A stretch of 64,000 bases of DNA from a virus: positions 15,027-79,026 of IMG/VR virus record IMGVR_UViG_3300021178_000012, one strand, 5' to 3'. A program made the position numbers and the translations under genes. This document shows positions 1 through 42,952 of this stretch, one piece after another (the stretch's first letter is position 1; each line of letters opens with the position of its first letter). Under the pieces are notes generated by a model that worked only from the letters and a program-made list of their open reading frames with translations, was not told the DNA's origin and ran no database searches.

Positions 1-378
1 CGATTGCGCGAGCTGCGAGGTGGCGTTGACCGCACCGGACGCAGCCGAGTTCGGGTCAGACGCCGCCTGTTGCGCCATCTGCGCGGCCGTTGCGGCGGCC
101 TGCGCTACGGCAGCGGTACCCTCGGCGACCGCTGCACTAGGAGATGCGCTAGGTGGCGGAATGGCTGCCCCCTGCGGTGCACTCGGCTGCGCCTGTGCGG
201 GGGTGGGCTTCGAGAAGCCGAGCGGATGCGCCCTGAAGTACGCCGCGATTGCCGATGCGTCGTCCATCGGAGGCGATCCCGGCGGCAGCGCTGCATGCGC
301 CTTTTTCTTCACATAGTACCCGAGACCGAGAACGGCCGTGATCCCGGCAACGATGGCTGCGATGACAGGCTTCTTCAT
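1..378 (-). CDS. Membrane-anchored Ala/Pro-rich protein, paralog of the neighbouring gene; 3' end lies outside the window
   Basis: ATG at 378 overlaps the upstream stop (ATGA) and the frame is open to position 1. MKKPVIAAIVAGITAVLGLGYYVKKK = hydrophobic anchor plus basic patch; shares DDxxAIAAYF[KR]AHP with 375..608. Confidence 0.75.
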   Translation of the reverse strand, partial: MKKPVIAAIVAGITAVLGLGYYVKKKAHAALPPGSPPMDDASAIAAYFRAHPLGFSKPTPAQAQPSAPQGAAIPPPSASPSAAVAEGTAAVAQAAATAAQMAQQAASDPNSAASGAVNATSQLAQS

Positions 379-608
379 GACGACACCCTGGCATTCTCCA
401 TTGCGTTCTGCTTCGCACGGACAGCATCCTCGAGCACGCCTGGAGTGAACGTGAACGGATGCGCCTTGAAGTACGCGGCGATCGCCGCGTTGTCATCTGT
501 CGCCGTGGCGGGCACACCCGGCGCGTGGCGCTTCTTCAGCCAGAGGTACCCAGCGCCCAGGAGCGCGACGACGCCCGCTCCGACGATGAGTGTCGCGTGC
601 CTTTTCAT
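375..608 (-). CDS. Small membrane-anchored protein (putative virion membrane protein)
   Basis: N-terminal TM segment LIVGAGVVALLGAGYLWL followed by KKR; ATGA-coupled to both neighbours. Confidence 0.75.
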   Translation of the reverse strand: MKRHATLIVGAGVVALLGAGYLWLKKRHAPGVPATATDDNAAIAAYFKAHPFTFTPGVLEDAVRAKQNAMENARVSS

Positions 609-2560
609 GGTCCACCTTTTCGTGTGAGCAAAAACGTTCCGAAGCCGATCAGCCCGACGCCGGCCGCGACGAGTCCTCCGAGGAGAGTGACCTTAGGCTT
701 CGGCGGCGCAAGCGTCATAGAGGCTCGCACGGGTACGCTGCCGAACCTTGACAGGAACGGGTTGGCTGAAGCGAGAACGGTCTTCATGGCGCGAATCGGG
801 ACGGTGAACGTCGGCAAAAAAAGCTTCGCTGTTCGCTCCGGAGGAACGTAGCCCGGTTTCGCGCACCCTGCCTGCAACTTGACTGCATCAGGAGCAGACG
901 ATGCCGCGGCCGTATCTTCGTTCTTCTTGTGGATGTCGATGAGCGCGTCGAGTCGCTTCGCGAGCTGATCGACCGAGAGGATCGTTCCGTAGTTGATCGT
1001 CGCCCACCTCCAATTGAAAGGGGCGACCTTTCTCGCGTACGTGAGCGACTCCGAGACGCTCGCGCCAAGGCGACGACGTTGCACGTACGCACACATCGCG
1101 TCTGGCGGAACCATCGGCACGTAGTACGTTCCACCCTTCGCGTTGTTCGGTGGGTTCGCATACTCCTTGAGCGCCTCCGCGAGACCGCCGCCGTTCGCCC
1201 ATTTGTTGTACTGCCCGCTTGCGATTTCTTCACTCGTAAGTGGAGTCGTGCCGGGGATGTCTGCTCCTCCCTTGTCGACGAGCTGAATGTCCGGCATCCG
1301 AATATCTTCGATGCGGTACGGCACCGCAAGCGCGAAGTGGGAAAGGTAGATGCCAGCGTCCTTGCCTGACACTTGCGTCGCCGTGCCGATTGTGATTCCT
1401 GACACCGAAGAAATGGTCGAGGCGGCCTTCTGAATCATGTCGATGCCGGCGGCGACGCCTGCTTGAGAGACGTTCGAGATAGCCGTTCCGATGTCGGGCG
1501 CGTTCTTTACCGCGTTCGCCCCCATCGTCGCGGCATCGCTTGCCGCATTGAACATCGCCGTGACCCCTTGCTGTCCGGCTGCTCCCGAGATACTTGCGCC
1601 GAGCTTGGCTCCTGTCTGTGCAAGGCCTGTTGCAGTATCGACGGTCGTCGACGCCTTCAGCGAAGCGTCGGCCCCCGATGCCGTATCTTGCGCCATCGCT
1701 CCCGCTTGCTGCATTCCTGCGCCGGCCTTAGCCGCATCGGAACCGGGTGGTGCGAAATGCTCAATGAGCCCGCCAGCAATCGAAACGGCTGTCCCGACAG
1801 AACCAATGACACCGAGAACGCCGCCGACGGAGATGCCTCCCGCGGCGGCTGCTGTGACTACCGGGGCAATGATCCCCGACGTTGTAGCTGCCACGGTAAA
1901 ACCACCGCCCGTCGCGCCGAGGATCGCGCCACTTGCTCCGCCGGCAGCGGCCCCGCCAGCAATCGCAGCCGTAGCGCCGCCAGCCACAGCAGCGCCGGCA
2001 GCGGCCCCGCACGTGCATGCGATAGCGATGGCGATCCCGACGCCCGTGAAGATGGCTGCGAGCCAGGGCGGGTGCTCCTTCAGTGGATCCTCCCACACGG
2101 AGTCGCCCATATTCGCCGACCACTCGATGATGAGCCCAGAAAAAAGGAGGTCGTTGTAGGTGCCGAGGTTGAAGTGAGAGATCGACTTGCAGAGACTAAC
2201 AGGAAGGCTTCCCGACGGGGCTCCGTCTGCAATGTCCTCTGGAATGGCGGTATTGCCAGCCCAATCTCCTCCGCCTTCAACCGCGTTGCGTTGCTCCTCG
2301 ATGTAGAACTTCCCGCCCGGATCGGCGAACGTGACTGCACCGAAGCGCCACGGATTCGCACGGTAGGCGTCCTTCGTGGCAGCGTCCTTGATGATCCGCC
2401 CGTGCACGTTACCCGTGTCACTGCCTGAAGCCCCCGGAAGAGACTCCCACTTCATCCCACGGGCAATCCAGTCGTCGCTTGAGTAGATGAGCGGAACGTT
2501 GACCGTGCGGCCATACTGAATGTCGCCGCCGACGACGATCTTTCGCTTGAGGGAGATCAC
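605..2560 (-). CDS. 651-aa putative virion/entry protein with ~100-aa Gly/Ala hydrophobic stretch and C-terminal TM anchor
   Basis: Long ORF coupled to neighbours; central WLAAIFTGVGIAIAIACTCGAAAG...AGGLI segment; C-terminal LLGGLVAAGVGLIGFGTFLLTRK. Confidence 0.7.
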   Translation of the reverse strand: MISLKRKIVVGGDIQYGRTVNVPLIYSSDDWIARGMKWESLPGASGSDTGNVHGRIIKDAATKDAYRANPWRFGAVTFADPGGKFYIEEQRNAVEGGGDWAGNTAIPEDIADGAPSGSLPVSLCKSISHFNLGTYNDLLFSGLIIEWSANMGDSVWEDPLKEHPPWLAAIFTGVGIAIAIACTCGAAAGAAVAGGATAAIAGGAAAGGASGAILGATGGGFTVAATTSGIIAPVVTAAAAGGISVGGVLGVIGSVGTAVSIAGGLIEHFAPPGSDAAKAGAGMQQAGAMAQDTASGADASLKASTTVDTATGLAQTGAKLGASISGAAGQQGVTAMFNAASDAATMGANAVKNAPDIGTAISNVSQAGVAAGIDMIQKAASTISSVSGITIGTATQVSGKDAGIYLSHFALAVPYRIEDIRMPDIQLVDKGGADIPGTTPLTSEEIASGQYNKWANGGGLAEALKEYANPPNNAKGGTYYVPMVPPDAMCAYVQRRRLGASVSESLTYARKVAPFNWRWATINYGTILSVDQLAKRLDALIDIHKKNEDTAAASSAPDAVKLQAGCAKPGYVPPERTAKLFLPTFTVPIRAMKTVLASANPFLSRFGSVPVRASMTLAPPKPKVTLLGGLVAAGVGLIGFGTFLLTRKGGP

Positions 2561-2889
2561 GGCAGCACCCCAAAGAGGAACGCGAAAAGCCCTCGGCGGT
2601 CGCGGCGAGACATTAGTGTGCGCGAGGCGCGGCTTCTGCTGGCGTCGTGCTCACGAACGAGTTTCTCGGCCAACTTGTCGCTCTCCCTCATGCGCTTGAG
2701 GGCAAGCTGCTCGAACTTGTGCGCCGGCGTGCCTTTGTACCAACCACTCCCGGGCCCAACCATCTCGGGCATATGAAGATGGTACCTGTCGCGGAGTTCG
2801 CGAAGCTGATGCAGCTCGGCCGTTGTCAACCATCGGCAGAGGCCGTCTTTTCCTGCGCGCGGGAAGGTCACGACAAGAACCCGAACCAT
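2557..2889 (-). CDS. Hypothetical protein
   Basis: Fills the operon gap; its stop overlaps the start of 605..2560; start uncertain. Confidence 0.5.
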   Translation of the reverse strand: MVRVLVVTFPRAGKDGLCRWLTTAELHQLRELRDRYHLHMPEMVGPGSGWYKGTPAHKFEQLALKRMRESDKLAEKLVREHDASRSRASRTLMSRRDRRGLFAFLFGVLP

Positions 2890-3662
2890 CCGCTGCCGGA
2901 TGCCTTCTTGAGCATCGTCACCTGCGAGTAGTCGATGTGCGTGTTGTGACCCGTCGAGTCGATGTGCATCCCGCCCTTCGACTGAATGAGCGGATTCCCG
3001 TCGACATCGCGACCCGTCGCGTTCTTGTCGTACCAGCCGAAGTTGTACCCGCCCTCGAGCCAGTACTTACCGACGTTCGACACGGGCACCGACCCGCTCC
3101 ACCCCTTCGCCGTGAGCTGCTCGTGCACCTTCTGGTCGTGCTTCTTCGCGAACGCGAGCGAGGCCATCTTCAACGTGTCGGCGCTCGTCGCCACAAGAGT
3201 GACAGGCACAATCTCGAGCGCCTCTCCGGTCTTCGCAGCCTCGTGGATGTGCGCGAAGTCCTTCTCCTCAAGAAGCTCGGCTCCAAGACGCGCGGCGACG
3301 GCCTTCGCGTCATCGTACTTGAGACGCGCGAAAAGACCTGTGCGCGAGTCGGTCAACGGGAGCGCCGTGACCTGCATGCCTTGAAAGTCGACCCAGCCAC
3401 CGGGGTCGGAAAGCACCGCGTACTCTGGCGGCGTAAAATACACGTCCGAGTCGTCGGGCTTACTCTGTACGGTGCTCGGTCCGGTCGACGGTGGAAGCGG
3501 CGTCGAAGCAGGCGTCGCGGCCCTGACTGGTGGCGGAACGGGTCCTGGTCGGGGGGCTGTCGGCGTCGTGGCTGTAGCAGCCTTCGCAGTGCGCGAAAAC
3601 GCAATGAGCCCGGCGATCACAACCGCCGCGCCTACAGCCAGTAAAGCTCCCAACTTGCCCAT
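2868..3662 (-). CDS. Membrane-anchored protein with Pro/Thr linker and conserved-looking C-terminal domain (possible cell-envelope enzyme)
   Basis: MGKLGALLAVGAAVVIAGLIAF anchor, PTAPRPGPVPPP linker, then NVGKYW...YNFGW...PLIQ...H...HIDYSQ. Confidence 0.65.
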   Translation of the reverse strand: MGKLGALLAVGAAVVIAGLIAFSRTAKAATATTPTAPRPGPVPPPVRAATPASTPLPPSTGPSTVQSKPDDSDVYFTPPEYAVLSDPGGWVDFQGMQVTALPLTDSRTGLFARLKYDDAKAVAARLGAELLEEKDFAHIHEAAKTGEALEIVPVTLVATSADTLKMASLAFAKKHDQKVHEQLTAKGWSGSVPVSNVGKYWLEGGYNFGWYDKNATGRDVDGNPLIQSKGGMHIDSTGHNTHIDYSQVTMLKKASGSGWFGFLS

Positions 3663-3696
3663 AGAAGAACACCTACCAAAACGAGACTGCTTGAAA

Positions 3697-4611
3697 TCAG
3701 ACGAAAGACATGTGCCATTGCACGAACCCGTTGACGTTGGTCGTACCCGCCGTAACTTGAACACGCTGCGCGTTGTGATGACCGACGCGCGTCATGAATG
3801 CCGATTGATCCGACGTGCCCGTGAGTTGCACAAGCGTATCGACAGGCACAGCCCCTGGACCAACGACCTTTGCGAGAGATCCGCCTGCGGTCTCCTGAGA
3901 GATCGCGATCGTTGGCGCAACGAACGGTGCGGCGGCGTTGTCGTTGTACGTGAAGGAATGGGCGCCGAGGGGGACCGCGTTGAACGTCCTAGTAGTTGCG
4001 GTCGCGTCCCCGGTGCGCGCGAGTCGAAGAGAGAGCGTCGCATCAGCTTCCAACGGAGACCCTCGACGTACAGCGTGCTCGTGTGAGCGCTGCATCGGAT
4101 GTCCGGCTATGGCCATTGCAATGTCGTACTCGCTCTCGACGAGAAAGTACTCGAAGGTCCAAGAGCCGGGGTATTGCGAGATGACCGAAAGCTTCCCCGG
4201 ATACGGAAGAAGCATCATCCGGTTGCCGACGATGTCGAAGAAGAACTTCATCGTGTCGGTGCTGGTGTTGATCCCATTGATCTTCACCTTGTCCGGGTCG
4301 ACGAGGTCCGAAGACGTCGCGGCGATCTCGTACCGCAGAAACGGGCCTTCGAGCGTGAACCCTGTCCGTGCGCCTGAGAACACCGGATCTGGATCGAGTG
4401 CGTTCTGTGCGGCGGCACCGTACTGCGGCGTGAGACCTGCACCGCCAGCGTTGTCGAATGCCGTGACGTCAAAGCTCCCCGACTTGAGCTTCATGAGGAG
4501 CTTGGAGGGTCGACAGATGTTGGCGATCGTCTGCTCAGCAAGATTGAGCACACACGTCGCCGCACCGGTCTTCGTGACCTTTGCTCCTCCGACTGTGACG
4601 TCTCGTGACAC
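3697..4611 (-). CDS. Beta-rich putative structural protein (second capsid or vertex candidate)
   Basis: 304 aa, alternating hydrophobic pattern, position in the structural operon. Confidence 0.45.
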   Translation of the reverse strand: MSRDVTVGGAKVTKTGAATCVLNLAEQTIANICRPSKLLMKLKSGSFDVTAFDNAGGAGLTPQYGAAAQNALDPDPVFSGARTGFTLEGPFLRYEIAATSSDLVDPDKVKINGINTSTDTMKFFFDIVGNRMMLLPYPGKLSVISQYPGSWTFEYFLVESEYDIAMAIAGHPMQRSHEHAVRRGSPLEADATLSLRLARTGDATATTRTFNAVPLGAHSFTYNDNAAAPFVAPTIAISQETAGGSLAKVVGPGAVPVDTLVQLTGTSDQSAFMTRVGHHNAQRVQVTAGTTNVNGFVQWHMSFV

Positions 4612-4620
4612 GCGATTCCT

Positions 4621-5289
4621 TTAGTGCGGGGCCGGAACGATTTCCGTCTCCGCCGGCAGCTCAGGCAAACGGAACTCGTCCATCTGCGTCAACTTCTCGA
4701 AGAGATGGTTGGCCATCTTTCGATCTTCCTCGTTGAGCTTGGGAAAGGCTCGGTTCACCCGAGCTTGGAGTTGATCCATGAAGTCCTTGGCCTGCCACGC
4801 ATACATAGCTTCTCGGCCGAGCTTGATCCCCTCCTCGATCCACTTGTCCTCACGCTCGCTGTCGAGGTGCGCGATCGTCATGTTGCGCATCTCGTCCTTG
4901 AGACGGTGGTTCTCGTCGCGAATGCGGTCGTAGTCCTTCTCCCGCTCGCACTTGACTTCGCGCTCACGAGCGAGCTCGGTCTGGAGCCGATCGTTCTGAC
5001 TGAGGAGACTGTCAAGCGCCCCAGTCGTTGCTTGCTTCGAAGCCCGCGCCTGGATGAGAAACATGTCGTCATCTCGGTTCGCTGACCTCTTGCCGACGAC
5101 GGTCTCGAAATAGATCGTGTCGTTGTGCCGAAGCTCGTACTTGCCAGGGTTGGCTTCTACGTACTCGGCGTCCACGGGCACCGGCTCCGACGGATCATCT
5201 ATGCAGAAGATGACCCATGTCGGATCGTCGTCGTGTTTTTGTGCCTCGCGAATGAACTTCAGAGGCGCTTGTGTTCGAGGCGGCGGCAT
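4621..5289 (-). CDS. Hypothetical protein with central coiled coil
   Basis: ORF track; charged heptad segment LDSLLSQNDRLQTELARERE...NHRLKDEM. Confidence 0.65.
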   Translation of the reverse strand: MPPPRTQAPLKFIREAQKHDDDPTWVIFCIDDPSEPVPVDAEYVEANPGKYELRHNDTIYFETVVGKRSANRDDDMFLIQARASKQATTGALDSLLSQNDRLQTELAREREVKCEREKDYDRIRDENHRLKDEMRNMTIAHLDSEREDKWIEEGIKLGREAMYAWQAKDFMDQLQARVNRAFPKLNEEDRKMANHLFEKLTQMDEFRLPELPAETEIVPAPH

Positions 5290-5296
5290 GCCGACC

Positions 5297-5644
5297 TCAC
5301 TGCGCGAACTTGTTCACGACGTCGGCAGTTCCCATATTGACGGCACTGCCGACGATGTGAAACACCGTTACGGCCGCAGCGCCGGCTGCCGGGGTCGTCT
5401 TGTTCGTCGCCGTGAAGGCGTTGAGCGTCTGGCCTGCCCACGTGATCGTCCGTCCGCCGCCGCCGTCTTGCGTGACGATGACGTCGATCGAGTGACCTGG
5501 CTTCACGTTGGAAAGCGTGAACGTTGCGTTGCCAGCCGGGAATGTGAACGTGAACACGTTGCCCAGACTCGCATCGATTGCCGCAGTGGCTCCTGTGACA
5601 AGCGCCACGACGCCACGAACCGGAATATCGCCCTTTTGTCCCAT
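5297..5644 (-). CDS. Small beta-rich structural protein (fibre/spike-associated type)
   Basis: ATG at 5644 after purine-rich GAAGGAAGAGGAAG; motif FTLSNVKPG-SIDVIVTQDGGGGRTITW resembles a common phage virion beta-domain. Confidence 0.55.
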   Translation of the reverse strand: MGQKGDIPVRGVVALVTGATAAIDASLGNVFTFTFPAGNATFTLSNVKPGHSIDVIVTQDGGGGRTITWAGQTLNAFTATNKTTPAAGAAAVTVFHIVGSAVNMGTADVVNKFAQ

Positions 5645-5691
5645 GACTTCCTCTTCCTTCTCAGACGGTTTTCGAAACTTTGCCGATGCGC

Positions 5692-6852
5692 TCAGCGTCG
5701 GCGACGCGGAACCGGAACGTTGCACCCTGTCGTGCAACCCTGGAGTTGCGGATCCATCCAGTGCGCTACGGGGAGAGACTCCACCGATCCTTTGAAGGAG
5801 AGATCCTCCGCCGGAACATCGTCGTCACTCCACTGACCAACGACCTCTTGCACCCCGGCGACGAGCGTCGGCGACTTGTCGTCGTCATCCCATCCTGTTT
5901 CCGCAGGGCCGGCGACAGGCGCTGGCGCATGCGAGTGAGGCGCAGGCAGTGGTGCGGCTTCGACTTCGTCGTCGGCCCATCCGTCGCCCACGCTCGATGC
6001 GTCGGGCGCTGCGCTGCTCTTCCCGAGCGCCGCCTTGCACGAGCCGCACGACCCGCCGCAGTGACAAGCACCGCCGTGATCATGACCAGCTGTGTCGGTG
6101 GTATCAGCCACGTCGGTGGGGCCGTCGTAGGAGTTCGCCATCACGTAGCGGTCGGCGAGCACTTCGTAGTCGGGCTCCTGGTCTCGATTGATCGCATCGA
6201 TGATGTACGTGATCGATGACTTCTCTTGACCGGACACTTCCTCGGAGGCGAGTACGTCACGCGGATCCGTCGGCGGGTTCAGCGAAGCCTCCGCAGCGTC
6301 GAGCGCTGCCAGCGCGTAGTTCTTGTGGTTCGCCATGTTCGCGGCGGACAATGCCGAAGCGCTTCCGCTCACAGTCGTGGCCGCCTTCCTCGAGCGGTGC
6401 TCGAGCACGCGAGAAAGATGAGCGAGGCGCTGACCCGCACGCGCCATGTTCGCCATCTCGACCTGCTCTCGGCTGCCGGTCATGTACCCGGTGGCTCGCG
6501 CGTGACGACGCCTCGAAACCTGCGCGCTCTCTTTGCGCTTCGAGTCGGCCTCTCGGAGGGCCTTCACCGTGGGCAGCTCGATGGCCGACGCTCCGACCAC
6601 CGCGGGGTCGCGCGGAAGGTTGCTCGACGTGAGCAACGACGCAGCGCCTTCCATCCCGGCGACGACAGGACCGGCGACGTTCTTGAACGTGTCCTTGCAG
6701 TCGTCGATGATCGTCTGGAGAAAGCAGTCGGCGACGGTGTGCACCGGGATCGACGTGATCTCTTCGACACCCTGAAGGATGAGCTTGCTTCCCTGGTACG
6801 CGACGCCGATGTTTCCGGCAGTCATGAGAGCTGGCAAAAGTGCGGGCAACAT
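5692..6852 (-). CDS. Hypothetical protein with His/Cys cluster and acidic C-terminal tail
   Basis: ATG at 6852 with AAGGAG RBS; HDHGGACHCGGSCGSCK; three W-x-D-D motifs. Confidence 0.65.
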   Translation of the reverse strand: MLPALLPALMTAGNIGVAYQGSKLILQGVEEITSIPVHTVADCFLQTIIDDCKDTFKNVAGPVVAGMEGAASLLTSSNLPRDPAVVGASAIELPTVKALREADSKRKESAQVSRRRHARATGYMTGSREQVEMANMARAGQRLAHLSRVLEHRSRKAATTVSGSASALSAANMANHKNYALAALDAAEASLNPPTDPRDVLASEEVSGQEKSSITYIIDAINRDQEPDYEVLADRYVMANSYDGPTDVADTTDTAGHDHGGACHCGGSCGSCKAALGKSSAAPDASSVGDGWADDEVEAAPLPAPHSHAPAPVAGPAETGWDDDDKSPTLVAGVQEVVGQWSDDDVPAEDLSFKGSVESLPVAHWMDPQLQGCTTGCNVPVPRRRR

Positions 6853-6871
6853 TCGTTTCTCCTTGGACTCC

Positions 6872-7336
6872 TCAGAGTCGCCTGACTCGCATCCACGCGA
6901 TCCCGTCGTAGGTCGGTAGCGGGGGCATCCCGCAGTCGACCGAGGGATCAATCACCGACTTTGGGGTGCCGATCTTCGTCGGCGTTCCACCTGGACCCTC
7001 GATGCCGCACACACAGTGGGCGATGCTCCGACCTGGACGGAGTCCGACGAGCGCTGGCTTGTTCTCGCCGACGAGAAGGTACGCCGCATGAGCACATGCG
7101 ATGTCCTCGCAGTCGAGCGGGATGGGACCGACGGGGTACCTGTCTCGGAGGCCTAGGAAGGTGCTCCAACAGTCGGGCAGTCCGCACGTATCCGGATCTG
7201 GAACGTAGCGGAACCTGCCCGACCGCAGAGCTTGCTGATAGGCGCCGAGGAGTGAGGGACTGGCCTCGAAATCCGATCGGTTTGCCTCCGCGAGCCCACG
7301 AAGACTCGTGAGAGTCTCCCTGACGCGCGAGTCCAT
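6872..7336 (-). CDS. Transglutaminase-like (papain-fold) cysteine protease, putative virion maturation protease
   Basis: Cys-His-Asp triad motifs LDCEDIA, IAHCV, VIDPS in order; directly downstream of the capsid candidate. Confidence 0.7.
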   Translation of the reverse strand: MDSRVRETLTSLRGLAEANRSDFEASPSLLGAYQQALRSGRFRYVPDPDTCGLPDCWSTFLGLRDRYPVGPIPLDCEDIACAHAAYLLVGENKPALVGLRPGRSIAHCVCGIEGPGGTPTKIGTPKSVIDPSVDCGMPPLPTYDGIAWMRVRRL

Positions 7337-7344
7337 GGCTGGGT

Positions 7345-8178
7345 TCAGCCGCCGTAGATCGAGTGGAAACCGACCTGCTTGCGGATGAGGTTCGCCATGT
7401 TCGCCGCACTGTTGACGACCTGCGCCGAGTTCTGGCCACAGGGATCTGTCTGCGACGGGATGAGGAAGCGCGGGTTCAGCGTGATCGCATCACCCGTGCC
7501 GGCGACCGACATGTTGGCGATCGTGCCGGTGACCTGCACCGAGTTGTCGAACACCTGGCCGGTCCACGGCTGGATGTTGAACTTCTGACCGTCGCCACGA
7601 GCGACGAAGCCCATCCAGCCTGTCGCGTTCGCGATCGGCGCGGTAGGCGTCGCCTGCGTCGCGAAGATCTGGTCGAGACCGCCGCACTTGAGGCTGGTGA
7701 AACCGAAGATCTGAGCCTGGTCGTCGCCCGCGAGGAAGGCGAGAAGGCGGTACCACGACGTACCGCCTGAGGGCGTGATCGTGAACGCGAGCGTGGCGCC
7801 GGGGGCGACCGTGGTGCCGTACACGCCGACGAGTAGGTTCGGGCGTCGGAGGTAGTCCGCATCGAGCACACCGAGCTGGCTGTGGATCATCTGCGCGACG
7901 TTGGAGAGATGCGTGATCGCGGCAGCGTGCGACGTCGAAACGCCGTTCTGCACGAGGGCCTGGTTCCCGATGCGAGCCATCGCGGCCTGCGCCACGAACT
8001 TGTTCGGATCGACGGCGGCGCCGACCGCGAAATGCTGGAGCCGAGCGTAGAGCTGGCTGAGGTCCTGCTTGGTGTTGACCTCCAGCGGGATCGGGTCGTC
8101 GTCGGACTGGTAGGCACCGTAGGGTCGGTTGGGCATGTAGCCGCCGACGATGGGACGATTGAACTGGTCTCGCAGCAT
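7345..8178 (-). CDS. Putative major capsid protein, jelly-roll-like
   Basis: Strong RBS (AAGGAG); helical N-terminal arm, then ~135 aa of beta-strand pattern (TLAFTITP, WYRLLAFL, FGFTSLKCGG-DQI, VQVTGTIAN, ITLNPRFLIP); adjacent protease. Fold is inferred. Confidence 0.5.
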   Translation of the reverse strand: MLRDQFNRPIVGGYMPNRPYGAYQSDDDPIPLEVNTKQDLSQLYARLQHFAVGAAVDPNKFVAQAAMARIGNQALVQNGVSTSHAAAITHLSNVAQMIHSQLGVLDADYLRRPNLLVGVYGTTVAPGATLAFTITPSGGTSWYRLLAFLAGDDQAQIFGFTSLKCGGLDQIFATQATPTAPIANATGWMGFVARGDGQKFNIQPWTGQVFDNSVQVTGTIANMSVAGTGDAITLNPRFLIPSQTDPCGQNSAQVVNSAANMANLIRKQVGFHSIYGG

Positions 8179-8218
8179 GAGAAACTCCTTCTTTTCTGTG
8201 TCTGGTGGAGGGCGCCCT

Positions 8219-8593
8219 CTATGGCGGCGACCCTCCCCAAAAAGGTTCGGGCGGAATGCCCTTGTCGGCCGGTTCCTCTCTTGAGCCCGGAAGCTTGAAC
8301 GAGGTCGTGCTCACCCATCGAGTGATGAGCGCGTGGCCTGCGCCGAAGAGAATGGAACGCGAAGACTTGCGACCCTTCCACTTGACCGCAGTGCCGAGGA
8401 GGGCGCCCGCGAGGACGACCCAGTCGGGCTTCAGCGCCTGAACGCCGAAGATGCCCTTTTCCATGTTCTTGGAAGCGAGCGCGACGAGAGCGTGCGTACC
8501 GAACTCGAGGGTTCGAGTGCCGAGATGGCTGAGGTGCTCTTTCCCTTGCGCCTTCGCGAGATGGCCGTTGAACTTTTCGATTCCGAAACCCAT
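8219..8593 (-). CDS. Small protein with hydrophobic segments, first gene of the structural operon
   Basis: ORF track; WVVLAGALLGTAV segment. Confidence 0.6.
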   Translation of the reverse strand: MGFGIEKFNGHLAKAQGKEHLSHLGTRTLEFGTHALVALASKNMEKGIFGVQALKPDWVVLAGALLGTAVKWKGRKSSRSILFGAGHALITRWVSTTSFKLPGSREEPADKGIPPEPFWGGSPP

Positions 8594-8748
8594 TTGAGAG
8601 CCTCCCGGCTGGTTCGTTTGGACGTGCTCAACGATGACAGCGCGTTGGAGTGCTTGACAACGAATTAGAACCGGACGAGACTTGTTTGCATAACGTTATG
8701 GCCATCACGACGTGATGTGGGTCACGTCTTGACGAGTGGAGAGAAAGA
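8594..8748. promoter_or_regulatory. Divergent intergenic promoter region
   Basis: Non-coding gap between divergent operons; contains TTGACA but no well-spaced -10. Confidence 0.35.
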
Positions 8749-9075
8749 GTGCCGACGGACAACTACTTCAAGGCGACCAAGTGGCGTGCGACCGAGACCG
8801 GGTTCGGGCCCGACGACTTCATCGTCTGCTTCAACTCGAGCGACGAGATCGCGACAAGGAACGCGTGGGAGCGTGTCTCGACGTTCGCTTCAAGAAACAG
8901 TCTGCATGTCACAATGTGGAAACGTATCCACCGCACGGGACCGTGGTCAGAGTCGAAGGTGATCGGCGACTCGCCTAAGCCGATGCGCGTGATCTCGCAG
9001 AACGATGCGGAGCGGTTGACGAGAGAGTTCGGTGTCTTCTCCTTGACGCCGAAGGAAGAGGAGAAGCCATCCTAG
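8749..9075 (+). CDS. Hypothetical protein
   Basis: GTG after GGAGAG; coupled to the next ORF. Confidence 0.6.
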   Translation: MPTDNYFKATKWRATETGFGPDDFIVCFNSSDEIATRNAWERVSTFASRNSLHVTMWKRIHRTGPWSESKVIGDSPKPMRVISQNDAERLTREFGVFSLTPKEEEKPS

Positions 9076-9473
9076 TGCCCATCCTCCGCACTTCCGACGG
9101 CAAGGACGTCGAGTGGCCGTGGCCCACCGACGTGAAGACTATCTCGCTGTCGGCGAAGCGACTCGCGGCTCTTCGTTCGAGGAGTGCGGTCGTCCGAATC
9201 ATCGGACATGCAGACCTCTACGATTTTCAGATCGGTAGGCTCTACCCGCACCCGACAAGACGGGATCGCGCCGTTCGCATGCGCAAGATCGCGAAGCGGA
9301 TCATTCACCACAAGATGGAAGACCTCTGCGTTGGCATCGGTGAGGTTCGGATCATGGAGATTTTTTATTCGACCGACGACCCGTCCGTGCTCCGGCACAA
9401 GCTCATGAACGCACCCTACAACGAACGTCGCGCCCTCGACGACATCGAGGCCCTCAAGGAGATGACATGCTGA
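9075..9473 (+). CDS. Hypothetical protein
   Basis: GTG overlaps the upstream stop. Confidence 0.6.
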   Translation: MPILRTSDGKDVEWPWPTDVKTISLSAKRLAALRSRSAVVRIIGHADLYDFQIGRLYPHPTRRDRAVRMRKIAKRIIHHKMEDLCVGIGEVRIMEIFYSTDDPSVLRHKLMNAPYNERRALDDIEALKEMTC

Positions 9474-9820
9474 TCGACGAATCGACAATCGAGTTGAAGA
9501 ACAAGTGGACCGAGCTCTTGGTGGAGTTCATCGACGACGCCACACGGAAGCTCGGCCTCCAAGACGCAGACAAGCCCGAACTCCGCAAGCAAACGTGCGA
9601 GGCGACCCTGAAGCTCTCGATCGTCGCAGCTCGAGCCGAAGGGATTTCGTGGGAGGAAATCCTCGACCTGAAGAAGGACGTGGAACTGATCATCGACCAG
9701 CGGCAGCTCAACCGATCTTTCGCCAAGGTGTCGATGCCAGCGACGAACGGTGCGTCAACGTCGCCTGCAATCAAGGCAGAGGCAGCGGCCAGCAAGACGA
9801 AGAAAGGAAAGAAGGCGTGA
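9467..9820 (+). CDS. Hypothetical helical protein with Lys-rich tail
   Basis: AAGGAG RBS; coupled to neighbours. Confidence 0.65.
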   Translation: MLIDESTIELKNKWTELLVEFIDDATRKLGLQDADKPELRKQTCEATLKLSIVAARAEGISWEEILDLKKDVELIIDQRQLNRSFAKVSMPATNGASTSPAIKAEAAASKTKKGKKA

Positions 9821-10644
9821 CCGACACCAAAGACGCGCCCGGTCTCGACGACTTCGCGCCGCCGACCGAACTCGCACCCACATCGATCAAGGAGATGGCC
9901 GAACGTCGGCGCGAACTCGACGCAGGCAACAATATCGCCTCGCTCCACAAGTACGCGAGGATGGTCGCGCCGGGCCTTCATACGAAGGTCATGCACCTGA
10001 TCGTGTCAGCCGAAGACAAGGTCGACGTCGGCGTCCTGCGGCGCGGCTTTGCCTTCATCCGCGAAAAGGTCGGCGGCTACAAGCAGGTCCTCACCGACCA
10101 GGAACTTCGCAAGGCCCAGCAGATCTACGATCACCTCCTCTCGCTCTTCCACGAGACCGGGGGTCAGCCGGACATTCCGCCGAACGAGGCGCTCTCGATC
10201 GTGCTCGAGTGCTACAACTTCGTGAACAATCTGCTCGAGTCCTACTCGGACAAGAAGGGTGTTCACGCGATCTACGAGATCTATCTGCTCATCGAGCTCG
10301 CCGGCCTCGCACAAATTCAGTACGACAACTGGGGCCAAAGCGCTGGGTACTTCATGCCTTACAAGAAGTGGAAGGACCTCGGGATGCCCAACGTGGCAGG
10401 GGCGATCCCTGCCGGCGCCCCGGTCGTCGCCGCCTCGAAAGAAAACGGTCGTCTCGCCGTCACAGAGGAAGACGCACGTCCCATCGACAAGGGGGGAAAA
10501 GGCAGCGAGGACACCGGAGTCCGACCGGAACAGCTTATGGAACGTCTGCCGAAGATCGATCCGCCCGAAACCTTTCGAGGTGACTACTACGACATCCACG
10601 GCGGAGGGACGCGCGGCGGTTCAGGAGGAAAGGTGCCGACGTGA
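9817..10644 (+). CDS. Hypothetical protein
   Basis: GTGA overlap at 9817; the longer ORF-track start at 9505 overlaps the previous gene. Confidence 0.65.
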   Translation: MTDTKDAPGLDDFAPPTELAPTSIKEMAERRRELDAGNNIASLHKYARMVAPGLHTKVMHLIVSAEDKVDVGVLRRGFAFIREKVGGYKQVLTDQELRKAQQIYDHLLSLFHETGGQPDIPPNEALSIVLECYNFVNNLLESYSDKKGVHAIYEIYLLIELAGLAQIQYDNWGQSAGYFMPYKKWKDLGMPNVAGAIPAGAPVVAASKENGRLAVTEEDARPIDKGGKGSEDTGVRPEQLMERLPKIDPPETFRGDYYDIHGGGTRGGSGGKVPT

Positions 10645-40460: not shown

Positions 40461-40967
40461 GGAAGCTCGAAGAACACGCAATGGATAAGAACGGGCCGGC
40501 GCTCTATCTCCTGCCCGTGTGCCGACGTTGCGGTCACTCGGTGTGCCCATGCTGCCTGGTTTGGTGCGACCGTCTCGTGAGCGGCGAAGAGTCCGACGAT
40601 GAAATGTGCTGCGACGGTGAGTGCGACCTTCACGAAGGCGAAGCGGTTGAGCGGATCGCGGCGTTCGATGCGGAGGCGCTTTATGGATAGTTGCAACTGC
40701 GACTCATGCCTCTTGCGCCGAGCCTTGGCGCGGGCGCGCGAGGAGAACCGCGAGCTTCGGGCGCGAGTCGCCGAACTTGAAGACGAAGCGAAGACGTTGT
40801 CGAAAGCCGTCTTGGACGGACACGGCATCCCGTGTCTCCTCTGCGGCGAGGATTGCAACGCACTCGTCGGCAATCCTGGAAGATGGCCGATTGGGTTTTG
40901 TTACCGAAGCGAGCCAGGCGTCGTGAAGTATCATTGCACAACGTGCGTCGAAAAGAGGATGTCGTGA
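40457..40967 (+). other. Two Cys-rich hypothetical CDSs: 40457-40690, 40683-40967
   Basis: Coupled ORFs. Confidence 0.55.
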
Positions 40968-42952
40968 ACGACTACGAAACCGCCCTTGCTGCGCTACGTG
41001 ACGCCGCTGATGGTAAGACCCATCAAACATATATTTCAATTCGCAAGTATCTCACCGCCCTCCCCGCCGAGCAGGAGCGCGTCCGCGGGCTCGAGGCCGA
41101 AGCCGCCTTGTGGCGGGCCGTCGTTGCGACCGAGACGGAGGACGAGGGGGAACGGCTAGCGTCCGCATACCAAGCGGGTACCTCGACGCTCACGTCAGAG
41201 CAACGTCGATCGGGATGCCTTCAGTGCCTCACGTCGAGCAAGGTGGGGCTGCTCGCCGTCCGCCGCGCCGTCATTGCGCGGGCGACGACGGATGCGGCAC
41301 TCGATGCGCACGACGAGGTGATGAAGCCGCCGCCGTTCGTTCCCGGCACGTACATGGTGTCGGGTGACTCGATGGGCGCGGCGAGACGAGCACGGGCCAG
41401 AGCTGGCATCCTCGCCGCCCATGCCGCGAAGGCTGAGGAGTTAGACCACAAGGCCGAAGCTCGAAAGGAGCGCTGGTTAGAGCGTAACGAGGAACTGTGT
41501 CGAGAGCGCGACGCCCTCCGCGCCCGCGTCGCCACGCTGGAGGGCGAACTTACGGAGGCGCGCGGGCAGCTCGAAAGGCAACACGAGCTTTCCGCCGTCA
41601 GCGACAAGATGCTTCTGCTTGCTAAGGACATCTCTGTCGCCCAATCCGCCGAGCTCGAAGCGCTGCGCACCAAGGCGCGCAACTACGACGAGCTTGGCGC
41701 GGACTTCGACAAGATGGCTCTGGCTCTCGCGGAGCAGACGTCGGAGGTGCAAGCGCTGCGACGGGTGGCGGAGGCCGCGCGACAGTTCGCCGATGCGACG
41801 AGCATCCGCCCAGACAGGCAGGAGCTCTACGAAGCCCTTGCTGCTCTCCCTTCGGATGACCGGATCGGTATCGCCGTCTATCAAAAGGAGATGTGGTGTC
41901 GCAACTGCGGTCATCCGCTTGTCCTCAGCAACTACCGCATCGCTGACGGGTGCCCTTGCAATTCGAAGAGAGGCGTCAATCATGGACTCGTCCCAACGTT
42001 GACGTGTACTTGCGTCAAGTGCGACCCGGAGCAAACGGGCTCAACACGTCACGCTATTCCTGGCGTCGACGCCTGCCGCTGCCACGCCATCATCGGCACG
42101 GACCCCACGCGGCACTTCAAGGAGTGCCCGAAGCGCGCCGAGTACCCGAAGGCGTCCACCGAGCCGTGTGCGGCGTGCGGCGGGACGGGGCGCGCCGTGG
42201 CGCTGCTTCCGTGGGATGACGAGGATCAAGCCCTTGCGGAGGGACGCAATCCGTCGGCCGAGCCCCCGCTCGCCCCGGTGCCGCGTGGGCATTGCGGGCG
42301 GTGCGATAAATGTGAGGCGCTCATCAGTGGCGGCCATCATCCGGATTGTGGGGAACGGGATCCGAAGTTCTGGCCGGTAAGTCACTGCCCAGGCTGCGGC
42401 GCGCCTTACGAGACCGGAGACGCCTTTCGGAGTCTCGTCGCCAAAGCTGGCAAACCGCCGCACTCAATGATGGCAGCTGCGACCGGGCCCCTCGGGGTCG
42501 CCCCCGCGGACGAGGACCCGCAACGCATCGAGATCGGTCGCATACCGCCTGGCGTCACCGTGAGCGGGCCGCGCGTTGCGCCCGCGGACGATGACCCGTG
42601 TCCGCACGCCGGTTACGCATTGCCAAGCCAGTGGGAGCAGTGGCTTGGCCGCGAGAACGAGCGGCGAAAGGCGGAGACCGCGGCGATGGCTGAGCGCGTA
42701 CAGGCAATCTGGGAACTGCTCCGACAGACGATGAACCGGCTCGATGGGCTTGACCATCCGAAGACGGGCGCGCTGGACCGACTCACCGCGCTCGAGGCGC
42801 CGGCGCCGTTCGCGTTGCCTGTTTGGTGTTCGGACGCGGCGCTTGAGGCGATGCGCGCCGGAAGCACGACGAGCCCAGGCCAAGCATGCGAATTGCTCGC
42901 CGCACTCGTAGACGTGGTGACGAAGCTCGCGGCGGGACGAGGTGTGAAGTGA
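40964..42952 (+). CDS. Large mosaic hypothetical protein (coiled coils and several Cys-rich modules)
   Basis: GTGA start at 40964; open for 662 codons. Confidence 0.6.
   Translation: MNDYETALAALRDAADGKTHQTYISIRKYLTALPAEQERVRGLEAEAALWRAVVATETEDEGERLASAYQAGTSTLTSEQRRSGCLQCLTSSKVGLLAVRRAVIARATTDAALDAHDEVMKPPPFVPGTYMVSGDSMGAARRARARAGILAAHAAKAEELDHKAEARKERWLERNEELCRERDALRARVATLEGELTEARGQLERQHELSAVSDKMLLLAKDISVAQSAELEALRTKARNYDELGADFDKMALALAEQTSEVQALRRVAEAARQFADATSIRPDRQELYEALAALPSDDRIGIAVYQKEMWCRNCGHPLVLSNYRIADGCPCNSKRGVNHGLVPTLTCTCVKCDPEQTGSTRHAIPGVDACRCHAIIGTDPTRHFKECPKRAEYPKASTEPCAACGGTGRAVALLPWDDEDQALAEGRNPSAEPPLAPVPRGHCGRCDKCEALISGGHHPDCGERDPKFWPVSHCPGCGAPYETGDAFRSLVAKAGKPPHSMMAAATGPLGVAPADEDPQRIEIGRIPPGVTVSGPRVAPADDDPCPHAGYALPSQWEQWLGRENERRKAETAAMAERVQAIWELLRQTMNRLDGLDHPKTGALDRLTALEAPAPFALPVWCSDAALEAMRAGSTTSPGQACELLAALVDVVTKLAAGRGVK

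Follow-up and report, generated by a model that had tools for sequence, protein, structure and literature searches.

The window analysed here, a whole stretch of 64,000 nucleotides (bases 15027-79026 of the 83,579-bp IMG/VR record IMGVR_UViG_3300021178_000012, an uncultured soil virus), carries at its left end, on the minus strand, the late operon for virion proteins, or rather its first, promoter-proximal third; the virus belongs to a lineage of large temperate soil viruses that has not been described before. The particle encoded by this operon is probably not of the tailed-phage type. With somewhat better than even confidence, it can be read as a tailless, membrane-containing virus working more like SPV1, with a nucleoprotein core and no packaging motor, than like PRD1. 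The terms tailless and membrane-containing are drawn from the absence of genes and from counts of predicted transmembrane (TM) segments, on records that are incomplete (CheckV completeness of 49% for this one).

The operon ran without gaps from position 8593, where a 155-bp divergent intergenic region adjoins its start, through position 605 to window base 1, and extended 12.7 kb further to the left, to contig position ~2331 (locus L001), giving a length of ~21 kb. Start codons refined by ribosome-binding sites yielded proteins of 124, 277, 154, 386, 115, 222, 304, 264, 110 and 651 amino acids (aa), followed by the start of a 183-aa gene (Table 1). An earlier note on this DNA, made from the letters alone, had described the block as an operon with a beta-rich 277-aa protein, a Cys-His-Asp protein and a series of TM-anchored proteins, and these observations were confirmed; the first gene product, which it had called hydrophobic, was weakly so (best 19-residue hydropathy of 1.38) and displayed no clear TM segment. 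The record is linear, with no direct or inverted terminal repeats found at its ends, and the GC content is ~61%.

Families typical of tailed-phage heads and tails were not detected. Pfam was run on all open reading frames (ORFs) of at least 350 aa, and Pfam together with PHROGs on nearly every late gene, and these scans returned no capsid, portal, terminase, tube, sheath, tape-measure or baseplate family. Among ten operon ORFs of the window, none passed a Pfam family cut-off and a single one (the 146-aa ORF) matched PHROGs, in a family with no assigned function. When the late genes were scanned along with ten large genes of a relative, only Gly-rich fibre, SLT and receptor-binding anchor domains were obtained. 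Six-frame searches of the whole 83.6-kb record with profiles of the terminase large subunit (TerL; PF03237, PF03354), HK97 capsid (PF05065), portal (PF04860) and FtsK (PF01580) gave no match, in searches where control genomes did match. The absence of HK97 capsid, portal and terminase genes, first claimed for the 64 kb, extended to the entire record and to the late operons of two related clades, read through their endolysin genes, while the claimed absence of tail genes was valid inside the window but not beyond it, as a tail-fibre-like gene lies 7.8 kb to the left.

Packaging ATPases were also missing. By motif scan, the sole genuine P-loop proteins in the 83.6 kb were a DnaC-like protein, UvrD and AAA_24, all located in the replication region, and no unassigned Walker A protein of at least 250 aa was found in the same DNA. 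Neither this late operon nor any of five related loci, two of which were read through their endolysin genes, contained a plausible P-loop NTPase; Walker A-like strings in these late loci fell only within a basic protein, a fibre-like protein, and ORFs that were short or in non-coding frames. The A32/FtsK-like packaging ATPase that the earlier note would have placed left of the window was therefore absent, the late operon being devoid of any P-loop protein. The block thereby lacks a hallmark of Varidnaviria-type viruses.

Two other interpretations of individual features were tried and rejected. A 706-aa ORF of the replication region (window 40832-42952, plus strand) contains a 'GKT' string and was considered as a hidden terminase; it encodes a Cys-rich coiled-coil protein with many Cys-x-x-Cys pairs, no P-loop context and no match in the PDB or Pfam. 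A type IV secretion or conjugation operon, considered on account of an SLT domain next to many TM proteins, was discarded given the lack of a VirB4- or VirD4-type ATPase, the fibre-like proteins and the presence of an endolysin in relatives.

The candidate major capsid protein is the 277-aa product of the second late gene. As had been pointed out from its sequence, this gene is strongly initiated (AAGGAG, 7 nt upstream of the ATG). Its GC content at third codon positions (GC3), 0.87, was the highest among the operon genes and second in the window to one short ORF, and in six of six modules the GC3 of the capsid-like gene was the top of its module or within 0.03 of the top. The predicted layout of the protein encompassed an acidic disordered N-terminus, a helical domain (residues 37-110, including a 29-residue helix), a sandwich (113-245) and a basic C-terminal helix, with invariant or near-invariant motifs flanking the sandwich on both sides (RRPN at 111-114 and DPCG at 245-248). 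Structure prediction with AlphaFold2 was unusable with nine close sequences (mean predicted local distance difference test, pLDDT, of 56) and required an alignment of 23 sequences, down to 20% identity, which gave a pLDDT of 77.4 (85-94 in the core) and a predicted template modelling score (pTM) of 0.56.

The jelly-roll fold suggested earlier for this protein was borne out by this model, in the form of a predicted jelly-roll-type sandwich with weak structural matches (Z of 6 at most). All neighbours over residues 112-248 were of jelly-roll type, encompassing GOLD domains, C-domains of subtilases, CUB domains, C-domains of enterotoxins and viral coats. The viral coats were tied with the cellular jelly-rolls, among them those of HHIV-2 (6h82_b; Z 5.1, root-mean-square deviation, rmsd, of 4.4 over 117 aligned residues), luteoviruses (Z 5.3), satellite viruses (Z 4.7-5.0) and HCIV-1 (6h9c_Z; Z 4.4). 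SPV1 chains (6oj0) aligned with Z scores of 4.8-5.0 and rmsd of 3.7-3.9 over 115-119 residues, a fit that did not surpass those of the GOLD domain and the plant-virus coats, and single barrels of the mavirus and PRD1 capsid proteins with Z scores of 4.5-4.6 (4.5 for PRD1 P3). No HK97-fold chain was found among the structural matches listed. The predicted fold class of the 277-aa protein is jelly-roll-like and not HK97, at a level of similarity where no specific relative can be named.

The 277-aa family is rare, with 10 clusters among 5.8 billion proteins in one collection and 19 representatives among 1.8 billion in another. A Pfam scan of 23 members yielded no domain, blastn and tblastn against 50,697 phage records yielded no match, and the family was found at no other IMG/VR locus and, with two different queries, in none of the GTDB species genomes. 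One 1.6-kb contig with a relative was obtained from JGI metagenomes, while a further homology search with a widened profile of the family added no sequence. Look-ups in the ESM Atlas for the 277- and 304-aa proteins returned sub-threshold, unrelated rows only; BFVD returned a single borderline row for the 277-aa protein (an uncharacterised 130-aa protein of an uncultured virus, E 9e-4); and profiles of the 277-, 304- and 154-aa families retrieved chance-level rows only among PDB sequences. Judged from sequence comparison, the lineage is undescribed, as the earlier note had supposed, because of this small number of representatives (19) and because none was found in the phage records or elsewhere in IMG/VR.

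RNA data gave a possible sign of expression for the start of the operon. Seven contigs from a soil RNA library, from a third study, were 100% identical to the window, six of them over 6717-8609 and the seventh at 418-568. Those over 6717-8609 spanned the first three late genes (124, 277 and 154 aa) and the beginning of the fourth; one covered 8195-8609, ending 16 nt upstream of the first late start codon. No other 100%-identical RNA contig was found in positions 1-10000 (669-6680 and 8685-10000 were uncovered), which is no proof that transcription is absent there. These contigs provide a weak hint of late-gene expression, as contigs cannot rank genes and carry-over of DNA is possible.

Directly downstream of the capsid candidate lies the 154-aa gene, whose product is supported by its sequence as a papain-fold thiol enzyme. 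Cys76, His107, Asp130 and a CGxPxCW motif were invariant across six homologues, the triad occurs in the order expected of transglutaminase-like proteins within a recognisable core, and members of the family matched PF24656 (8.6e-5), PF01841 (7.6e-4) and DUF553, the window copy itself staying below threshold. The transglutaminase-like assignment made in the earlier note is thus upheld as a prediction. For its statement that several virus groups encode such a protease next to their capsid gene, no backing was obtained from the papers listed on jelly-roll or membrane-containing viruses, none of which contains the term.

The 304-aa protein is the second candidate for a place in the shell. Homologues were found in four related loci (L003, L007, L008 and L013) and in five database proteins, with no match in Pfam, PHROGs, PDB sequences or phage records, and a profile-profile comparison displayed no relation between the 277- and 304-aa families. 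It is possible, but unlikely, that the particle is tailless with a shell built by this protein, as a compact double jelly-roll in the manner of PM2, the 277-aa protein then serving as penton, as scaffold, or as an abundant protein associated with the membrane or core. Its length is within that known for capsid proteins of the compact double jelly-roll kind, the family is conserved in most relatives examined, and the 277-aa sandwich is small (~130 residues), as in penton proteins. However, the GC3 of the 304-aa gene was ordinary (0.71 here, 0.63 in L003) compared to that of the 277-aa gene, at or near the top everywhere, and the protein had no family match and no clear homologue at the matching position in the distant clade.

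TM anchors were predicted in 11 of the ~28 late proteins, in agreement with the many anchored proteins that the earlier note had seen; three of these lie in the window and eight just to its left. The genes to the left comprised, in order, the 183-aa anchored protein, a TM-anchored SLT transglycosylase (PF01464, 5e-4; phrog_196, 1e-8), a 219-aa protein, also TM-anchored, that matched CHAP weakly (E 0.03), six further anchored proteins (427, 213, 149, 177, 118 and 172 aa) and an acidic 160-aa coiled-coil protein. A very basic protein of 256 aa (L001:7893-8663, minus strand) was also encoded, with 20% K, 12% R, 7% H, only 2% D+E and a GC3 of 0.84, and was followed by two small basic ORFs (L001:7290-7717). 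The end of the operon was occupied by a receptor-binding-type cassette (L001:2331-7250) of five proteins: 327 aa and 468 aa (both Gly-rich), 379 aa (with a beta-helix-like N-terminus), 214 aa and ~239 aa. The 327-, 468- and 214-aa proteins share an N-terminal domain of ~90 residues, and the same domain occurs free-standing as the 115-aa gene of the window.

The number of membrane proteins, the conserved basic protein and the lack of a packaging motor would also suit an enveloped, pleomorphic or filamentous nucleoprotein virion without icosahedral shell, with the DNA coated by the basic protein, an envelope made of the membrane proteins and a matrix or spike role for the 277-aa protein; that the 277-aa protein matched capsid proteins no better than cellular jelly-rolls points the same way. 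We regard such a virion as rather improbable. A single jelly-roll protein with signs of very high expression, beside a protease-like gene and acidic scaffold-like proteins, is the usual signature of shell assembly, and we know of no enveloped pleomorphic bacterial virus with a genome above ~15 kb.

The organisation of the operon was shared by the contigs that carry the capsid-like gene. On the divergent side these contigs displayed a conserved gene pair, with an integrase in addition in two of them. On the late side, a gene of 110-184 aa, the capsid-like gene, an enzyme of 130-158 aa and a protein of 317-536 aa were followed by anchor-domain genes (PF26209), a coiled coil, the 304- and 264-aa families and SLT. 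A 71-kb contig (L015) encoded a capsid-like protein 58% identical to the one here, in a late operon of ~26.5 kb whose last genes are that of an Amidase_2 endolysin and two small ones; a 64-kb NCBI contig (L019) of a distant clade encoded one only 21% identical, in a late operon of ~24.4 kb that contains an M15 endolysin. The basic protein had a homologue at the same relative position in the 71-kb relative (L015:8525-9268, 33% K+R) and an analogue, again at the same relative position, in the distant clade (L019:5778-6491, 30% K+R). Anchored late proteins amounted to ~13 in the 71-kb relative while the distant clade had 11 among 40. Neither relative's late operon yielded a P-loop protein or a head or tail family, the DNA read amounting to ~40 kb per relative. 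The relatives' records are likewise fragments, and the records of the lineage span 64-84 kb. The 71-kb relative also encoded three SLT-like paralogues (232, 366 and 277 aa; L015:5282-7212), compared to one in this genome.

These relatives also bear on whether the operon could belong to a highly divergent tailed phage, supplying tail, baseplate, fibre and entry functions, while the genes for head and packaging would sit in a part of the genome that the incomplete record does not reach. The receptor-binding cassette of several proteins is typical of tailed phages, one of its members is a fibre-like Gly-rich protein, and SLT domains occur in tail proteins too (phrog_196 being a baseplate-hub family). 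Yet no tube, sheath, tape-measure or baseplate family was detected in three clades; the operon begins at the divergent early/late switch and includes the endolysin in both relatives, which leaves no room for head genes in their usual place; no unassigned P-loop protein was found in the 83.6 kb here or in the DNA read from the two relatives; and eleven membrane-anchored late proteins are unusual for a tail module. A tailed particle of this kind therefore seems quite unlikely.

The remainder of the genome was phage-like. Besides Ro60 and its Y RNAs, it encoded UvrD, a tyrosine integrase, a fusion of a 5'-3' exonuclease with AAA_24, and an O-like initiator (phrog_16167, 1.6e-29) whose gene precedes that of a Walker A protein, with anti-defence candidates in the accessory set; the O-like initiator and the integrase, both named in the earlier note, were thus real. 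As in Caudoviricetes, integrase, O-like initiator, UvrD, exonuclease, AAA_24, Ro60 with Y RNAs and a Gly-rich fibre domain were present, along with endolysins in the relatives. In contrast to Caudoviricetes, no HK97 capsid, portal, terminase or tail gene accompanied them in the window or in the two relatives' late operons, nor any of the first three elsewhere in the 83.6 kb, and the late protein with the highest apparent expression is predicted to be a jelly-roll.

Among known viruses, SPV1 has single jelly-roll shell proteins and no packaging ATPase. As in SPV1, no P-loop protein occurred in the late operon here, and a very basic late protein, the candidate DNA condenser, was conserved in three clades. 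In its particle, SPV1 combines a shell with a lipid layer and, as the core, a coiled nucleoprotein (PMC8459092). Unlike SPV1, which is archaeal, circular at ~20 kb and presumably non-lytic, the lineage described here has genomes of at least 64-84 kb, comes from soil, and encodes peptidoglycan hydrolases and an integrase. Sequence comparison shows no similarity between the two, and Z scores this low do not justify a claim of shared ancestry. SPV1 would be the nearest functional analogue, and the presence of a very basic protein instead of an ATPase points to an SPV1-like particle without motor.

Vertical single-beta-barrel viruses have two adjacent capsid genes beside an A32-type packaging ATPase, in genomes of 17-31 kb, and one of them, IN93, is temperate. 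HHIV-2, HCIV-1, SH1, P23-77 and IN93 are membrane-containing, icosahedral viruses with single-barrel shell proteins (PMC6414509, PMC6356626). Unlike in the P23-77 / HHIV-2 type, the neighbour of the 277-aa gene here encodes a Cys-His-Asp enzyme instead of a second barrel protein, no ATPase was found, and the second shell candidate (304 aa) lies four genes away without profile similarity to the 277-aa protein.

In PRD1/PM2-type viruses, the membrane holds many small virus-encoded proteins, the virion includes a lytic transglycosylase (PRD1 P7) and vertex spikes, genomes are of 10-15 kb, and replication is protein-primed in PRD1. PRD1, PM2 and the double jelly-roll phages possess an internal membrane, and PRD1 packages its DNA via the ATPase P9 through a unique vertex (PMC6356626). 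Unlike PRD1, this virus displays an O/DnaC-type replicon, a 277-aa protein with a single predicted sandwich and no ATPase. PRD1 thus fits less well as a model, because it needs the ATPase P9; more generally, the FtsK/HerA (A32-type) ATPase of the Bamfordvirae morphogenetic module was not found here. On these comparisons, the lineage was assigned to none of the families considered.

To our knowledge, cultured tailless double-stranded DNA (dsDNA) viruses of bacteria have genomes of ~10-44 kb, the largest being that of SSIP-1 (~44 kb), and each of them presumably relies on a packaging ATPase. The genome analysed here is about twice as large as that of SSIP-1. Regarded as an orphan, SSIP-1 contains a membrane, has capsid proteins of two types and shows hardly any genome match in GenBank (PMC6356626). 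A tblastn search of the 277-, 304- and 298-aa proteins gave no match in the 50,697 phage records, among which the inclusion of SSIP-1 was not checked.

A tailless particle with shell, membrane and nucleoprotein core fits the conserved gene set better than other known plans. In this set, one dominant jelly-roll protein and a thiol enzyme are joined by acidic and coiled-coil proteins, by numerous anchored proteins (two wall hydrolases among them), and by a histone-like protein, an endolysin and the receptor-binding cassette, whereas an NTPase is missing. In such a particle, the 277-aa protein, presumably the late product with the highest expression, would form the shell through its jelly-roll domain, and its acidic, helical N-terminal 110 residues would act as a built-in scaffold. 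The adjacent transglutaminase-like enzyme may cut this scaffold off near RRPN, or cross-link the subunits. The acidic 386-aa and the coiled-coil 222-aa proteins would serve as scaffold or internal proteins, and the 304-aa protein as a second shell or vertex component. Approximately eleven anchored proteins would populate the virion membrane, among which the SLT transglycosylase and the CHAP-like peptidase would open the cell wall. The histone-like 256-aa protein would condense the DNA in place of a motor pumping it, while four or five receptor-binding proteins, sharing one N-terminal anchor domain also available as the free 115-aa protein, would sit at the vertices.

In its fullest form, this proposal describes a new lineage, at family-to-realm level, of temperate viruses that infect soil bacteria and have large genomes (64-84 kb or more), with a jelly-roll shell and a membrane, a histone-condensed genome, no packaging NTPase, and a capsid protein whose own helical scaffold domain is removed or cross-linked by a transglutaminase-like enzyme. 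Taken as a whole, this combination is tentative, and we hold it to be more doubtful than probable.

Several points weigh against a tailless, motor-free particle. The membrane, the icosahedral shell and the proteolytic processing are all deduced from gene content, and the absence of a motor is argued solely from motif and hidden Markov model searches. Foldseek found no match of the 277-aa model in the PDB at E of 1e-3 or better, exhaustive structural alignment gave Z scores of 6.0 at most, the best match being a non-viral GOLD domain, and tailed phages, too, have jelly-roll sandwiches in their fibres and decoration proteins. The 327-aa protein of the receptor-binding cassette (L001:6267-7250), that matched phrog_863 (8.6e-34) and PF21722, is tail-fibre-like. 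No closed record is available, and a second structural region could sit in unsequenced DNA.

Table 1. Genes of the late operon in the window, in order of transcription
Feature	Position in window	Strand	Remarks
First late gene, 124 aa	8219..8593	-	Weakly hydrophobic; GGGAGG ribosome-binding site
Candidate major capsid protein, 277 aa	7345..8178	-	Strongest codon bias among operon genes; predicted jelly-roll-type sandwich
Transglutaminase-like (papain-fold) Cys-His-Asp protein, 154 aa; candidate maturation protease or cross-linker	6872..7336	-	
Acidic low-complexity protein, 419-aa ORF (likely 386 aa, ATG 6852); candidate scaffold or internal protein	5692..6951	-	
Putative free-standing receptor-binding-protein anchor domain, 146-aa ORF (likely 115 aa, ATG 5644)	5297..5737	-	
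Charged coiled-coil protein, 222 aa; candidate scaffold or connector	4621..5289	-	
Candidate second shell or vertex protein, 304 aa; no TM segment, beta-rich-looking sequence	3697..4611	-	
Anchored protein, 298-aa ORF (likely 264 aa, ATG 3662); N-terminal TM, Pro-rich linker, conserved C-terminal domain	2868..3764	-	
Basic protein, 110 aa	2557..2889	-	22 K+R in 110 residues; no Pfam or PHROGs match
651-aa protein with long Gly/Ala-rich middle; candidate large virion membrane protein	605..2560	-	
N-terminal part of 183-aa protein; N-terminal TM anchor, Ala/Pro-rich tail	1..378	-	Operon runs on leftward

Other genes of the block displayed various degrees of conservation. The 124-aa protein was 43% identical to its homologue in L003, and its position was conserved in the relatives. 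The DNA analysed was present in two soil metagenomes, of which one is probably the sample it came from and the other carries a variant strain: in this second soil sample, 13 + 10 extra bases were found at 8282-8284, inside the 3' end of the 124-aa gene, so that the C-terminal tail of the protein differs between strains. The 419-aa ORF contains 57 D+E compared to 40 K+R, has AAGGAG in front of its likely start codon and was 28% identical to a 425-aa gene of L003, without family match in Pfam or PHROGs. The 146-aa ORF matched phrog_5596 (1e-6); its homologues carry PF26209 (weak), and the relatives hold one to three free copies of this anchor domain. The 222-aa protein (34 K+R, 47 D+E) had a weak homologue in L003 and a sub-threshold leucine-zipper match in Pfam only. 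The TM segment of the 298-aa ORF spans residues 38-56 (hydropathy of 2.59), and homologues of this protein were found in L003, L007 and L008, with none in phage records. TM segments were predicted at residues 167-185, 230-248 and 626-644 of the 651-aa protein, for which Pfam and PHROGs gave no match.

On the early side of the divergent region, the first two genes (window 8979-9470 and 9505-10644, plus strand) were conserved beside the late operon in L003, L007 and L013 and had no family match; they could encode late-gene regulators or further virion proteins. At the other end, beyond the receptor-binding cassette, were found a dual-specificity-phosphatase-like protein (L001:851-1324, minus strand; PF00782, 1.9e-5, which does not reach the family cut-off) and a small protein whose signal peptide is of the lipoprotein type (L001:286-711, minus strand).

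If the tailless, motor-free reading is true, the size range of tailless viruses of bacteria would be roughly doubled, DNA condensation in the style of SPV1 or adenovirus would exist among bacterial viruses, and a capsid-protein family that reference libraries do not recognise would be added. Tools relying on hallmark genes (completeness estimates of the CheckV type, capsid and terminase markers) would misjudge such genomes, and soil viromes may therefore hold more of them than have been counted. The rich accessory set, with Ro60 and its Y RNAs and the anti-defence candidates, would then ride on a type of particle whose cargo capacity is unexplored.

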